A stretch of 52,014 bases of DNA, from assembly GCA_022843285.1 (NCBI GenBank), contig JALHNY010000006.1:1-52014 (forward strand). Direction: 5' to 3'. Position numbers and translations under genes: made by a program. Shown here piece after piece: positions 6,237 through 51,858 of the stretch. Position 1 is the first letter of the stretch; each line of letters begins with the position of its first letter. The stretch is from Minisyncoccota bacterium. GTDB taxonomy: Bacteria > Patescibacteriota > Minisyncoccia > UBA6257 > 2-01-FULL-56-20. Under the pieces are notes generated by a model. The model was not told the origin of the DNA, made no database searches, and saw only the letters and a list, made by a program, of their open reading frames with translations.

Positions 6237-6712
6237 TCCGGTCGCGTCACGATCACCCTGGACCCGGGCACGATGCCGTTTTCAGCCGCGTACCCCGCGG
6301 GCACCTCGAGCACCTCCTCGGCCGGCTCGGGCGGGGTGTACGTGTTGAGCTGCCACACCTGGGCGCCAATCTGGGGATCCACGTTTGCGGTGACGCCCAC
6401 GACTACCCCGTCGCGCATCCAGATGATGTCGATGGGAAACTTCATGCCGGACATCCAGAAGGAGTGGTACCCGGCGCTGCCAAACGAGAACAGCATGCCG
6501 TGGCCCGGCGCGAGCGACGCGCGGCCCGAGAGGCCACGCGCGCGCGCCACCATGCCCACCGCGAGATCTGCCTGAATCTGAGCCTCACCAATCGTGACCT
6601 GCACCTTCGGCAAGCCGTTGTTGGCGCGGTTCGCCAGGTACACGTAGGAGAGAATGAGCGTGAGTGCGATGGCAATCGCAATGAGGGCAAGTCCTTGGAA
6701 CATGTGCTTCAC
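6233..6712 (-). CDS. DUF192 domain-containing protein with N-terminal TM
   Basis: ARARGLSGR, GMLFSF, FWMSGMKFPIDIIW and VLEVPAGYAAENGI motifs. Confidence 0.9.
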   Translation of the reverse strand: MKHMFQGLALIAIAIALTLILSYVYLANRANNGLPKVQVTIGEAQIQADLAVGMVARARGLSGRASLAPGHGMLFSFGSAGYHSFWMSGMKFPIDIIWMRDGVVVGVTANVDPQIGAQVWQLNTYTPPEPAEEVLEVPAGYAAENGIVPGSRVIVTRPE

Positions 6713-6730
6713 GGCAGCATTGTACCCTGA

Positions 6731-9700
6731 CTAGCTGTTTTCCACTATCCAGCGGAGGTACGGGCCCTCGTCGCTCCCGTACAGGGCGAAGCCGTTAGAG
6801 AGGTCCCCCGCGACCGCAATGGATAGGGCGTACCTTCCAGCCTGCAGCACCACGGGGCTCTCAAATAGCGCCTGGACCTCGCCGGGCCCATCGACCGTCC
6901 TCCTCGACGCGACTGCTCTCGCCACCTCTGCACCGCTTTCGTCTTTCAGGACTAGGGCTGGGCGGGAGCAGCAGTACGGACCCCCTTCGGGTGCGACCCA
7001 CACCATAAAACCACGCAGCACCTTGGCGCCTGTTAGCTCGAAGCTAATCTGACGCTCAAGCACGATTTCGCCGTGCTCAAGATTTTCTGGAATCGCTGGG
7101 GAAACGAGTTCGACAGTTGTACTGGCAATGACGCCAGCATTCCCCTGCTCATCCACCGCTCTCACCGCAACGGTGTGGCGCCCAGGATCCACGGCTTGCC
7201 CCCAGGTAAGCCCCCTTCCCACTGCACGCCACTCGAGTGACTCTCCAGCCTCGACTGAAATCTCGTACCGCAGGAGCCCATCTAAACTATCTTGGTCTTC
7301 TGCCTCACCCCACGAAACCTCAAGCATTTCTCCGTTTAGTACCGTGACCAAGTTTTGCGGGGTACCCGGTGGGGATGAGCTCGCCACGGTCACCACTAGC
7401 TCTCTCGTGGATGAAGACCGCGCGAAGCTCTGCACTCCCGATCCGCCACCTACAAAGCTGTACCTTTCCAGAACCACCCGAGCTCCCACGATGAGCTCGG
7501 GTGAGGACCCCACCTTCAGCCACGCACGGTCATCTTCCCACTGGCGCATCGCCATTGCGCCGCTGAGCATTCCACCCGTTGAGCACGATTCGTGATTCAA
7601 TGGAACCACAATGACGCTGGTCACGTTCTCTAGCCCATGACACGCGAGGTATCGGAGTTGCACCAAGCCCTCTCCATCAATGCGGAGACCACTATCTGTC
7701 GTTATCTGATCGGGCACAGCCACGTTCGGCTGGCGCAGCACAAGTAGCTCCCAAGACTGCCCAGCGGGCACCGCACCTGAGCGCAACCCTAGATCTAATT
7801 TTGAGAATCCCACCCACTGCTGGCTGTCGGAATCAGACGTCACCAGCAAAGGAACGACCAGACCTTCTGCCGCTCCGTCTCGAGGCTCGGGCAGGCTCTG
7901 CGTGTTCTGCGGCTCTGGAGCAGCGCGCAGGTGCCACTGATTTTCCCTGCAGCCATTGCCCAACCACTCGCCTGCCTCACCTAGACCCGGATTCAGACAA
8001 GACTCCGAGCCCTGGGCTGCACGTTCGCGGCTCTGGCCCGCCGAAGTCGCTGGGTATGCATACCAATCAGCTACCGCGCCATCCGAAGAGCTCGCAACGC
8101 GTTCGCCACCACGCACCAGGGCGATAGATGCCCCCAGCCCTGAAAGACTGAAAGACCGGTGATACAAATCTGCCGGCAAAGCACCCCGGTAACCATCGCC
8201 GCCCCCCTGATTAACCTGGCGCGCGACCAGGTAGTACCCGAGAGCTGGAATCACCGCGTCATCAGGAAACTCTTTCCTCTGAGGAATCGAGCTCGTGCTG
8301 GCCGGCACGTACTGCAGTGACCACCCGCGCAACGAGACGGGCCGGCTCTCGGTGTTGTACAACTCAACCCACTCGTCTCCAGCATCTTCACCAGCTACCT
8401 GCAGTTCGCTGAGCTGCACCGCACCTGAGTCAATAACCCATGCGTCTTCTGGTGTGGCCTCAACGCGCTCTGTCACAACTCTCTTCTTTTTTTTGATCAC
8501 TTCTTTTTGTGGCGGCGCGACCTCGTGGGCTCGCGACCCAGGAGAGTTGACCCGGCCAGGCGTGCCGCCAGCCTCCGAACTAGTCTGCCACGCACCGCCC
8601 ACACTTCTTTCCATGGTTTTTCTGGCGGCTGCATCTCCAGCTGGCCAACTCTTCACCAGCATTACACTATCAACGGTCACACAGCCCGGGATTTCGATAG
8701 ACAGGCTGTACGCCTTGCCAGGTTCATTGGGCAAATTGCCCGCATAGATTGCGAGAGCTCGCACTCCCGGGACGGCATCATCATCGGTGCGCTCAAGTAC
8801 TGCGTACCCACCAGCTTCGATTTTTCCCCTCAGTTTCCCATTAATGCTCCCTTCACTGCTCTGCAACACCCAGCCATCTGTCACAACAGGTTCGTCACTC
8901 ACGTTATGCAACTCGATCCATTCATCGCTGGGGGAGACCACGGTACCCATCCACGCAACCTCGTTTATCATCACCTTGCTGGCGAGGTCAGTGAGACACT
9001 CAGCCACTGGCGAGGCTGGCTCCGGCTTCACCACGGGCTTTCGAATGACCGGCTTCCTATCTCCTTGAGCTTGCCCACTCTGCCCTTGCTGTACCGGGAT
9101 TTCCCGAACCTTGATTTCAGGCAGTGTTCCGCTCTTTTCTGTAGCCGGCGGTTCCTGGTACCTCGCCACAGCATTGGAAGCTGGCGTTTTTGTGAACGTG
9201 CCATTCAGCCAGCTGTATCCCCTCAATAGCTGAGCGCCGAGCGCCTGCGAGGTCCTGCTCGCCAGCGACACACCAACATCGAGAACCCGGGCCACCTCGC
9301 CGGCAATTGAGAATATCCTGGCCTCCTGTCCTGCGGCTTCCTGGTACTTCACTCCAGATTCCCGAAAATCTCTCAGCATCCCGACGCTGAGCAAAACAGT
9401 GCGGTGCGCGATGATTTGGAACTGCCTTTCGAGAACCTCATGAAACTCAGGATCAAATCCCAACGCTAAGCTCGAGTTCTTTCCCATGCCCACGCGCTTT
9501 GCCAGAGGCACCTCTTGCCCATCTGCAGCTCTGCCGTACGCGGTGCCTTGGCGCTCACTTTCAACCCGTGGCTTTTGAAAACTCGTACTCTCCACGGTGT
9601 CTTTCGAGAAAAATGAGTTCGCAACAAACTGAGCATTGTCAGCAAGGTAGTCCCGCGGGCTCTGGTAGCGCGGGATGCTCTGCGTACCCATAGCAGTGGG

Positions 9701-50479: not shown

Positions 50480-50484
50480 CCAGC

Positions 50485-51828
50485 CTAGCGGCAGGCCTGC
50501 GTCTGCGCAGCTCCGCTGGGGAGGCAAATTTCTCCAGTGTCGATGCAAGTTCCCGATCCGGGGGCGTAGGGCACGAGCTCTCCGGTGCCACCACAGCTGG
50601 GTGCTCCGGTATCCGTCCACCCACCCGATAGCTGCACGCAGCCCAGCTCTTTTCCTCCACCTCCCTCGGCTGCGCAGCTCGCGGTGCCAGAGACGCCGTA
50701 GTCCTCGTAATCCTCGAGGCTGTTGCAGTCGTAATCGAAGCTGCTATCGCCACGGTGGGCGGTGAAGTAGCCCGTCTGCCCGGGCCTCGCATTCGCGTTG
50801 CTGTCGTAGCAGTCGTTGCCGATGGAGGTGCTGCACGTCACGCCCACCGGGCACGAGGTAGCCGAGGAAACCGAGAAGTACCCATCGCTGTCGGCATCCG
50901 GCCAGAAGTTGGTCGCGCAGCTGACGTTCAGTGACGCGTTGGCATCGTTGCAGTCTACCGTGGTCTGCAAGAGGTAGCGGCGCCTCCCGTTGGCCGGCGC
51001 GCTGCTCTGCAGGTACATCTGCATGCTCGCCGGGTAGTTGTCGGCATCCTGGTCAATCATGTAGATGTTCGTCTTGATCAGCTGGCAGCTCGCGCACAGA
51101 GCCATGCTTCCGCTCCCCGAGAGGGCGAAGGAGCTGCCGCTGTTGAACGCGAAGTTCGCGTCGAGCGTCAGCGAGCTGGACAGCGTCAGATTGCCGTTAT
51201 CCACGCCGTCCGGCGCTGAGATTGTGCAGGGTGAGCTGATCGTGTGGCTGCCGCCCATCGGAATGCCGCAGGCGTCCGTCCAGTTGAGCGTCACGGAGGA
51301 CCGGTCCTCGCCCGCCTCCGCACCGATGAGCATCTCGTACGTCGTGTCGTGCACGTCGTGCACCGTCCACGACCCCCGGTACAGGGCGCGCGTCACGTTC
51401 TCCTGCGCGTTTGCCACCGCCGTGCCGGACTGCTCCGCGCGGTCCAGGAGGGCGAACCTCTCCGCGTGGCTGTCGTCCGCGGCGACGTCGCGGACGTAAA
51501 TCAGCGGCAGGTCGAACACCTTGCTGTCCGTCGTGATCCGCGCGTAGACCCGGTCCACCTCCTGACGCGACTCCACGGTCACCTCAATGGTCTGGATCTG
51601 GCCCACGTGGGTGTCCACCGGGTCGATGCGCGCCTCGGTGAGCCGCGGCCAGACGTCCGCAGCCTGGGCAATGGAGTAGATGCGCTGGCCCACGGGTAGC
51701 CGGGCGTTCTTACCCGCCTCCGGGGACCCACCCGGCGCGCCGCTGAACTGGAAAACGATGGGCACTGCGACGACAACTGCGAGCGTCACGGCTGCGGCGA
51801 CGTGCAGGAGGGAGCGGAACTTTTTCAT
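50485..51828 (-). CDS. Membrane-anchored Cys-rich exported protein with Dx[DN]xDG / MopE-like metal-binding repeats
   Basis: N-terminal TM; DQDADNY, DCNDANA, DADSDGY, DCYDSNANARPG and FDYDCN; start moved to MKKFR. Confidence 0.8.
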   Translation of the reverse strand: MKKFRSLLHVAAAVTLAVVVAVPIVFQFSGAPGGSPEAGKNARLPVGQRIYSIAQAADVWPRLTEARIDPVDTHVGQIQTIEVTVESRQEVDRVYARITTDSKVFDLPLIYVRDVAADDSHAERFALLDRAEQSGTAVANAQENVTRALYRGSWTVHDVHDTTYEMLIGAEAGEDRSSVTLNWTDACGIPMGGSHTISSPCTISAPDGVDNGNLTLSSSLTLDANFAFNSGSSFALSGSGSMALCASCQLIKTNIYMIDQDADNYPASMQMYLQSSAPANGRRRYLLQTTVDCNDANASLNVSCATNFWPDADSDGYFSVSSATSCPVGVTCSTSIGNDCYDSNANARPGQTGYFTAHRGDSSFDYDCNSLEDYEDYGVSGTASCAAEGGGGKELGCVQLSGGWTDTGAPSCGGTGELVPYAPGSGTCIDTGEICLPSGAAQTQACR

Positions 51829-51858
51829 GGGACAATTGTACCATTTCTGGCTACGCAG

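Follow-up and report, generated by a model that had tools for sequence, protein, structure and literature searches.

A TAnnnT box close to start codons points to leaderless gene expression in a GC-rich lineage of the Candidate Phyla Radiation

Introduction

In Actinobacteria and Deinococcus-Thermus, leaderless expression goes with a Pribnow box that lies 6–8 nucleotides (nt) from where the first gene begins in 25–50% of operons, according to the sections of PMC6028130 on this class. Here, we analyse a hexamer of the same form, TAnnnT, that recurs 5–9 nt before start codons in a 52,014 nt stretch of DNA from a Minisyncoccota bacterium (contig JALHNY010000006.1; the whole stretch is hereafter called the window). 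An initial annotation had listed 11 such boxes, taken their geometry as a mark of leaderless mRNA in the two groups named above—in agreement with the same sections of that source—and proposed heavy leaderless use in a lineage of the Candidate Phyla Radiation (CPR). Our analysis of the window and of related loci shows that the box is a promoter element, and makes it likely that the genes behind it are expressed from leaderless mRNAs.

Several described systems resemble the arrangement reported here. In the actinobacteria covered by the relevant sections of PMC6028130 (Mycobacterium tuberculosis, M. smegmatis, Corynebacterium and Streptomyces), TANNNT likewise stands 6–8 nt before ATG or GTG without a useful -35 element, the operons concerned include housekeeping genes, and GC-rich genomes make the box stand out. 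In Deinococcus deserti the geometry is the same and the proportion of leaderless genes is high (167 of the 262 that were mapped), and 37 of 38 Deinococcus-Thermus genomes fall into group C of the GeneMarkS-2 classification (both from those sections of PMC6028130). In group C genomes, first genes have a Pribnow box close by at a constant spacing, and leaderless and leadered mRNAs occur side by side; the window fits the same description. With the archaeal leaderless mRNAs (group D), the shared features would be an mRNA that begins at the start codon and a large proportion of transcription units.

Results

A TAnnnT box stands at a short, fixed distance from start codons

All 11 hexamers were recovered with the coordinates, strands and gaps that the initial annotation had given them (Table 1; the gap is the number of nt between the box and the start codon). 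Nine of the start codons are ATG and two are GTG (DUF192 and 'LAGLIDADG-like'), and the box is directly preceded by TGn in five cases. Housekeeping genes are among those served: dnaE, lysS, recG and a thioredoxin gene.

The frequency of TAnnnT in the window is 0.0023 per position. Among 59 manually curated genes (the gene at 46800–47513 was added later, and the start of rpsL was corrected during curation to the canonical MPTLNQL at 45891), 13 have the hexamer at a gap of 5–9 nt, against 0.67 expected (P~4e-13); successive 5-nt bins from gap 0 contain 0, 13, 1, 5, 1, 0, 2 and 1 matches. The annotation had cautioned that some starts were chosen by eye. The peak holds without such choices: when the candidates comprise all in-frame ATG, GTG and TTG codons between the upstream stop and a point 30 codons beyond the curated start, the box is found in 14 of 159 (1.8 expected; P~8e-9). 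A narrower form, TAYAMT, occurs 13 times in the window (five TACAAT, six TACACT, two TATACT). Eight of these are sites of the initial annotation, two precede tRNA genes, two belong to promoters of other transcripts (rplC, and one at the left edge), and one is unexplained; all five TACAAT, five of the six TACACT and both TATACT thus stand at predicted transcript starts.

Profile alignments support the chosen ATG of dnaE (residue 3 aligns with model position 3), recG and lysS. Homologues of the M50 and thioredoxin (trx) proteins keep the same length at ~100% coverage (134–137 amino acids for trx), and the N-termini of the bla-like, Cys-rich and trx proteins each consist of a basic stretch followed by a membrane anchor. 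In the DUF192 protein, the PF02643 match begins at residue 47.

The earlier statement that every box heads a transcription unit or stands alone holds for dnaE and M50, the only divergent unit heads. It fails for DUF192, trx and GT2, whose boxes fill same-strand spacers of 18 nt (after the stop of a lamin-tail-domain gene), 18 nt (after an AHSA1-like gene) and 19 nt (after map), respectively, and are thus internal promoters. The hicB-like open reading frame (ORF), recG and the 'LAGLIDADG-like' ORF come after tRNA genes, and the bla-like gene follows the hicB-like ORF across a 42-nt spacer. The region upstream of the Cys-rich gene leaves the window; in related locus L165 it is occupied by a large same-strand gene. 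Two gene labels did not survive scrutiny: 'LAGLIDADG-like' has no family or profile match, and the sole match behind 'hicB', a UPF0150-like one, is not significant (E = 0.074).

Table 1. Promoter elements in the window and their counterparts in related loci. For boxes on the minus strand, a single coordinate gives the position of the 5'-terminal T. L-numbers denote related loci.
Feature	Promoter element	Gap (nt) and start	Span (strand)	Related loci	Remarks
DUF192 gene	TACAAT 6719–6724	6; GTG 6710–6712	6710..6724 (-)		Alternative start at an ATG 9 nt downstream of the GTG
Class A beta-lactamase-like (bla-like) gene	TACACT 16641	9; ATG	16624..16641 (-)	TACACT, gap 9, in L175	
Small hicB-like ORF	TAGGGT 16929	6; ATG	16915..16929 (-)	TAGGCT, gap 6, in L173; TAGCGT, gap 6, in L175	
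Membrane-anchored thioredoxin (trx) gene	Extended -10 TGCTACACT; TACACT 19906	7; ATG	19891..19909 (-)	TGnTA(C/A)ACT, gap 6–7, in 4/4: gap 6 in L173, gap 6 in L174, TGGTAAACT with gap 7 in L175	
Strain-specific 'LAGLIDADG-like' ORF	TGCTAGGGT; TAGGGT 21648	5; GTG	21635..21651 (-)	Gene absent from relatives and several strains	Weakest of the 11
dnaE	TACACT 21892	6; ATG 21904	21892..21906 (+)	TACACT: gap 7 in L001, gap 6 in L173, gap 7 in L175	True unit head, divergent from tRNA-Thr
Class I lysS	TACAAT 27353	6; ATG	27339..27353 (-)	TACAAT: gap 6 in L001 (flanks diverged), gap 9 in L175	Preceded by a hairpin and T-run
GT2 glycosyltransferase gene	Extended -10 TGGTATACT; TATACT 28722	8; ATG	28706..28725 (-)	TGGTATACT, gap 8, in L001	
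M50 (site-2 protease family) gene	TATACT 46607	7; ATG	46592..46607 (-)	TAYACT, gap 6–7, in 7/8 loci; T, A, A of the box and ATG are among the few invariant alignment columns	True unit head
recG	Extended -10 TGGTATCCT; TATCCT 47681	8; ATG	47678..47697 (+)	Gap 6–8 before conserved LETPL N-terminus in 6/8 loci (relatives: L163, L165, L167, L169, L171)	45 nt after tRNA-Lys
Cys-rich secreted/membrane protein gene	Extended -10 TGGTACAAT; TACAAT 51840	6; ATG	51826..51843 (-)	TGGTACAAT, gap 6, L165 only	
tRNA-Val and tRNA-Trp genes	Box	Val 9, Trp 7	17064–17069 (-), 20629–20634 (-)	Val 4/4	
tRNA-Arg gene	TACACT	10 to mature tRNA	46629..46634 (+)	6/8 loci, gap 9–11	
tRNA-Lys gene	TTGTCA-18-TACAAT (box 47562–47567)	8 to mature 5' end	47538..47567 (+)	7/8 loci, gap 8–11: TACAAT in six, TAGTCT in L170	
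rplC operon	TTGCCA-18-TACACT		39877..39963 (-)		Leader ~48 nt
rpsL	TTGACT-18-TAGAAT	ATG 45891	45889..45940 (-)	TAGAAT at gap 17–22 in L163, L165, L167, L171	Leader ~12 nt; true start (MPTLNQL) is not the longest ORF
Lipoprotein gene 49796–50404	TGGTATAAT	47; ATG	50402..50460 (-)		GGAGG 9 nt before ATG

The window belongs to an unusually GC-rich CPR lineage

The window has a GC content of 64% and carries the str, S10 and spc ribosomal protein operons, dnaE, class I lysS, recG, six tRNA genes and an mraZ-rsmH-ftsL-ftsI-murF cluster. In a GTDB set with one genome per species, its closest dnaE relatives are metagenome-assembled genomes (MAGs) of Patescibacteria: L001 (77% identity; 64% GC), L002 (59%; 51% GC) and a Harrisonbacteria genome (55%). 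The nearest relatives of the M50 and trx proteins are likewise Patescibacteria MAGs, the named homologues being of Parcubacteria-type CPR. Furthermore, the uL30 gene is absent between rpsE and rplO, so that rplO directly follows rpsE; loss of uL30 is described as complete in CPR genomes (PMC9297842). Because of these relatives and the gap in the operon, the lineage is a member of the CPR (Patescibacteria), as the initial annotation had supposed, and an unusually GC-rich one. Across its family (the window, L001 and L163–L175) GC content is 57–69%, versus 31–51% in the other CPR loci fetched.

The box recurs and is conserved in related loci

The analysis was repeated on nine non-redundant related loci (170 kb, 57–69% GC), fetched via homologues of M50 and trx, with 180 genes in database calls made independently of our work. 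The box occurs at a gap of 5–9 nt in 37 of these genes, against 3.1 expected (P~6e-27), with a sharp peak at gap 6 (20 genes); the positional enrichment at gap 6–7 is thus reproduced at independently called starts. Over all candidate starts in these loci, the 5–9 nt bin contains 60 matches versus 7–27 in other 5-nt bins, while 1,833 deep internal in-frame start-like codons yield only eight matches in that bin. At least 15 further box genes lie outside the repertoire of the window, including those for a cupredoxin, S16, a glutaredoxin, an AI-2E transporter, a class II aminoacyl-tRNA synthetase and several hypothetical proteins. In low-GC CPR loci, dnaE alone is uninformative, chance TAnnnT being too frequent there. 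A metagenome contig scan with recG gave a best match of 45% identity, and those loci were left out of the analysis; contigs encoding window proteins, sought in order to extend the window, were all only ~1 kb long.

At nine of the 11 sites (M50, recG, trx, dnaE, lysS, GT2, hicB-like, bla-like and Cys-rich), the box–gap–ATG unit is kept in relatives amid diverged flanks (Table 1). For DUF192, no relative was seen among the fetched loci. The 225-amino-acid 'LAGLIDADG-like' ORF (20960–21637, minus strand) has a tRNA-Thr gene on either side; L001 lacks it, and its depth is zero in each of the several sequencing runs examined.

The box is a promoter element

Alignment of 34 pooled sites on the box gives the consensus G-n-TA(C/T)A(C)T, that is, G-n-TAYACT. 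The G two bases upstream of the box is present in 27 sites and a full TGn in 11; no conserved -35 column was found among the 34. Gaps in this pooled set are 6 nt (20 sites), 7 nt (seven), 8 nt (four), 5 nt (two) and 9 nt (one), and the start codon is ATG in all but three. The sites therefore look like extended -10 promoters of the sigma-70 type, which have TGn and a weak or absent -35. In 76% of box genes a C immediately precedes the start codon; followed by the A of ATG, this C makes the usual pyrimidine(-1)/purine(+1) transcription start, a start element of a type discussed in PMC12641261. Among 91 tightly coupled internal genes of the window and family, 88 have no box.

The same hexamers precede genes that are never translated. 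Four of the six tRNA genes in the window have a box, and across the family tRNA boxes lie 8–11 nt (mostly 9–11 nt) from the mature end, for which 5' leaders of ~2–5 nt are predicted. Since the box also serves untranslated genes, it acts in transcription: it is a promoter element, not a ribosome-binding signal. The distances differ, with peaks at 6–7 nt for protein genes and 9–11 nt for tRNA genes, as expected if selection for a transcription start that exactly coincides with the start codon acts on mRNAs alone. The boxes of M50 and tRNA-Arg, separated by 21 nt and on opposite strands (46602–46634), face away from each other; both are conserved, and together they make up a very compact pair of divergent promoters.

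Leaderless expression is the favoured explanation of the boxes

Leaderless expression is, in our judgement, probably the right explanation of the boxes; both the transcription start and the mode of translation are inferred from the DNA. We propose the following sequence of events: (i) TAnnnT would act as the -10 element of a sigma-70-type promoter, often TGn-extended and without a recognisable -35; (ii) RNA polymerase would begin the transcript with the start codon's A (or G), +1 falling exactly on the A when the gap is 6 nt; (iii) the mRNA would begin with AUG or GUG, with neither a 5' untranslated region nor a Shine-Dalgarno (SD) sequence; and (iv) the ribosome and initiator tRNA would bind the 5'-terminal start codon directly. 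The boxes of DUF192, trx and GT2 would work in the same way, squeezed as internal promoters into their short spacers. No SD could lie within the interval between box and start codon, because those 5–9 nt would be untranscribed. An AGGAGA before the boxes of bla-like and M50 lies upstream of the predicted transcription start and 14–16 nt from the ATG, and is therefore not an SD. The leaderless-type reading of the initial annotation is thus favoured by enrichment, spacing, conservation, promoter features and the contrast in SD use described below.

A number of points count against this explanation. The 8–9 nt gaps at bla-like, GT2 and recG may give leaders of 1–3 nt, and the distance from -10 to transcription start is assumed to be the usual 6–7 nt for the host polymerase. 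The Cys-rich promoter is kept in one of four orthologues, those of L163, L169 and L171 being coupled to the upstream gene. DUF192 and 'LAGLIDADG-like' both have a GTG with an alternative start downstream, and both are without comparative support. No contig from the RNA runs spans the start of a box gene, so the 5' ends rest on sequence. Finally, motifs upstream of genes might have swayed the programs that placed the 'independent' starts. This last concern is addressed by the all-candidate test: because candidate starts show the peak and deep internal codons do not, the peak is not made by the gene caller.

Real promoters could also produce very short leaders, or be followed by a start codon further in, so that the mRNAs would be near-leaderless and initiation might differ. 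The longer gaps point in this direction (those at bla-like, GT2 and recG, that of lysS in L175, and gaps of 6–10 and 12 nt in L002), as do the ATG that lies 9 nt after the GTG of DUF192 and the tRNA genes, where the same promoters stand 8–11 nt from the functional 5' end. Against this, the mode is sharply at 6 nt in both the pooled and the independently called sets, placing +1 on the A of ATG; the C at -1 fits a start at that A; the different peaks of protein and tRNA genes argue that coincidence is selected in mRNAs; and leaders of up to 5 nt conventionally count as leaderless in any case. We consider a near-leaderless arrangement unlikely.

Less probable still is that TAnnnT has no promoter function and is instead a non-SD translation signal of the kind found in GeneMarkS-2 group B, acting at the mRNA level on transcripts that are leadered or polycistronic. 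The location of the DUF192, trx and GT2 boxes within strings of same-strand genes, and the general rarity of SD motifs (~13% of genes), would suit such a signal. However, it would explain neither the boxes of untranslated tRNA genes, nor those found together with a -35 at 17–54 nt before leadered genes, nor the extended -10 G/TG feature; and a general ribosome signal would be expected at the coupled genes, nearly all of which have none (by the test given in the relevant sections of PMC6028130). Chance, or an artefact of placing starts by eye beside AT-rich hexamers, was tested and rejected, and we give it next to no weight. While seven of the 11 starts are not those of the longest ORF, the all-candidate tests hold in both the window and its relatives, the enrichment is replicated on independently called genes, starts fixed by profile or homology agree, and the sites are conserved.

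Shine-Dalgarno sequences are rare across the family

In the related loci, SD-like words precede 28 of 86 non-coupled genes without a box versus four of 34 with one (Fisher p = 0.02), bearing out the earlier remark that most box genes lack an SD. The GGAGG in the GT2 spacer is only 2 nt from the ATG and is not kept in L001. Combining window and family gives 240 genes, which divide into (i) 50 of the box type, (ii) 31 SD-led, (iii) 91 coupled (spacers of up to 15 nt) and (iv) 68 others. GGAG, GAGG or AGGA at -18 to -4 is found in ~13% of the 240, and those genes have T, not C, at -1. Upstream regions of the coupled and 'other' classes are CA-rich and G-poor, with C at -1 and -2 and no SD. The ribosomal protein genes and other coupled genes (30175–45469, minus strand, and in family loci) have no SD; their spacers are CA-rich and 0–15 nt long, with CC before the ATG.

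The 'heavy use' of the initial annotation is matched by 11–12 box genes among ~27 non-coupled genes in the window (~40%) and 34 of 120 in relatives (~28%). In a group C genome the remaining genes are expected to be SD-led; here, 31 of 240 are. The family works like a leaderless-rich, group C-like lineage for its promoter-proximal genes, within an SD-poor regime overall.

More distant loci provide a lead. In L002, boxes lie 6–10 nt before about half of the unit heads, without SD words. Across 274 unit heads of other, AT-rich CPR loci, TAHAHT peaks at gap 6 (13 versus ~3 per gap) and SD words occur at 11% versus 5% background, compared with 35–45% in Dehalococcoidia loci given the same treatment; starts in this comparison are crude (the first start in each ORF), making it a lead rather than a result. 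On account of these three sets of observations, it is conceivable, if on balance doubtful, that the CPR family, and perhaps Paceibacteria/Parcubacteria more widely, initiates translation almost without pairing of SD and anti-SD. Promoter-proximal genes would then be leaderless; most others would be reached by re-initiation over CA-rich spacers of 0–15 nt or through G-poor, unstructured leaders; and only a minority of genes, leadered and often lineage-specific, would be served by SD sites. CPR ribosomes are reduced, with bS21 often absent in Parcubacteria and bS1 shortened (PMC9297842), and we hypothesise that SD-poor initiation is linked to this pared-down ribosome.

If these proposals are true, they would provide a simple rule for fixing gene starts in CPR MAGs, where database calls are visibly over-extended (recG in L163 and L167; rpsL in the window), a promoter model (G-n-TAYACT) for organisms without genetics, and an SD-sparing initiation regime that matches reduced ribosomes, with a testable link to ribosome reduction. 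Because of its high GC content, this family has promoters that are unusually easy to read, making it a good entry point to CPR gene expression.

Leadered genes use the same hexamers at other distances

The same hexamers, accompanied by a -35, also stand at variable distances before leadered genes such as rpsL, the rplC operon and the lipoprotein gene (Table 1). Leadered genes with a GGAGG-type SD at normal spacing are found at 25141–25629, 49796–50404 and 46800–47513 in the window, and many more in relatives.

RNA evidence was taken from assembled (Logan) contigs of sequencing runs. Run X6 has a flat, DNA-like depth, and its contigs cross promoters and convergent genes. Drinking-water samples (runs X1–X4) contain 91–92% of the organism's 31-mers, and the organism is expressed in the biofilm samples of runs X25 and X26. 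These two runs represent real RNA, with contigs covering tuf, rpsJ, rplJ, rplL, mraZ, the gene at 46800, the lipoprotein gene and gene interiors. A two-hexamer promoter scan finds the predicted leadered promoters of mraZ and rplJ, and none of the leaderless type; as the latter have no -35, the scan is no test of them. Upstream of the ATG, contigs of X25 reach for at least 104 nt at mraZ and 97 nt at rplJ, and they stop 9 nt and 25 nt, respectively, short of the predicted transcription starts. They thereby confirm the long leaders of mraZ and rplJ, which had been predicted beforehand.

Comparison with described leaderless systems

Several differences separate the family from the systems outlined in the Introduction. 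In Actinobacteria the remaining genes are mostly SD-led, in contrast to ~13% here; the consensus of the present box is TAYACT, with G strongly preferred at the second base before it; and the lineage is Patescibacteria/CPR. Leaderless expression in Deinococcus deserti was verified by differential RNA sequencing and proteogenomics, while ours is inferred from sequence, in another phylum and with an SD-poor remainder. Group C assumes an SD for the other genes, whereas the coupled and many leadered genes here are CA-rich and without SD. In group B (the Bacteroidetes type), the motif occurs at all genes including internal ones, which is not the pattern found here. The box of archaeal leaderless mRNAs is ~26 nt upstream, as given in the relevant sections of PMC6028130, versus a bacterial -10 at 6 nt in the window. 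Judged by these features, the family resembles a mixture of group C and the non-SD or unclassified groups.

Nanoarchaeum equitans, with its reduced genome, transcribes tRNAs leaderlessly from promoters at a short, fixed distance from the tRNA genes. The tRNA genes of the window differ in that their boxes end 7–11 nt before the mature end, with short leaders predicted.

Our literature search found no paper linking leaderless mRNAs with CPR or Patescibacteria. The group C description in PMC6028130 names Actinobacteria, Deinococcus-Thermus, Proteobacteria and Firmicutes, and the sections concerned make no mention of CPR. The mechanism is thus known and the lineage new.

Neighbouring genes and minor observations

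Three further hexamers deserve mention. A strong extended -10, TGGTACAAT, at 131–136 (minus strand) fires off the left edge of the window and has no start codon within 10 nt. TACTTT at 44977–44982 (minus strand) lies at gap 5 before fusA, in the 30-nt spacer after rpsG; L165 and L167 also have TANNNT at gap 5, L163, L169 and L170 do not, and the site may be an internal promoter or a conserved spacer element of another kind. TACCAT before the murF-like gene (11982, gap 8) was treated as a chance match: it falls within the end of ftsI, and neither L173 nor L174 shares it.

Some neighbourhoods of the box genes vary. Upstream of DUF192 lies a 1196-amino-acid lamin-tail-domain protein (6731–10321, minus strand) with a lower third-position GC (0.62). 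A contig from run X9 joins 6748 to 10611, so that in that strain the lamin-tail gene is missing and the DUF192 promoter region is retained. Between dnaE and the tRNA-Thr/L33 cluster, L173 and L175 carry small, unrelated SD-led ORFs; as the 'LAGLIDADG-like' ORF is also strain-variable, this stretch is a variable hot spot. The lysS locus holds the gene for a class I (archaeal-type) lysyl-tRNA synthetase in the window (25698–27341), L001 and L175; in its place, the close relative L173 has a class II synthetase (PF00152; 1656–3098) with its own box at gap 9. This swap may be a non-orthologous replacement, the amino-acid specificity of the class II enzyme being putative.

Within the ribosomal protein region, two small ORFs lie between rpsJ and rplC (40019–40785, minus strand), rplC having its own promoter. 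A bacterial PH-domain protein is encoded between fusA and tuf (42397–42864, minus strand), an insertion kept across the family. Between tRNA-Arg and tRNA-Lys, the gene at 46800–47513 (plus strand) encodes a conserved hypothetical protein of 237 amino acids with the SD GGAGGT and homologues in L167 and L169; exact RNA contigs cover this gene in both biofilm metatranscriptomes, X25 and X26, about as deeply as they cover tuf.

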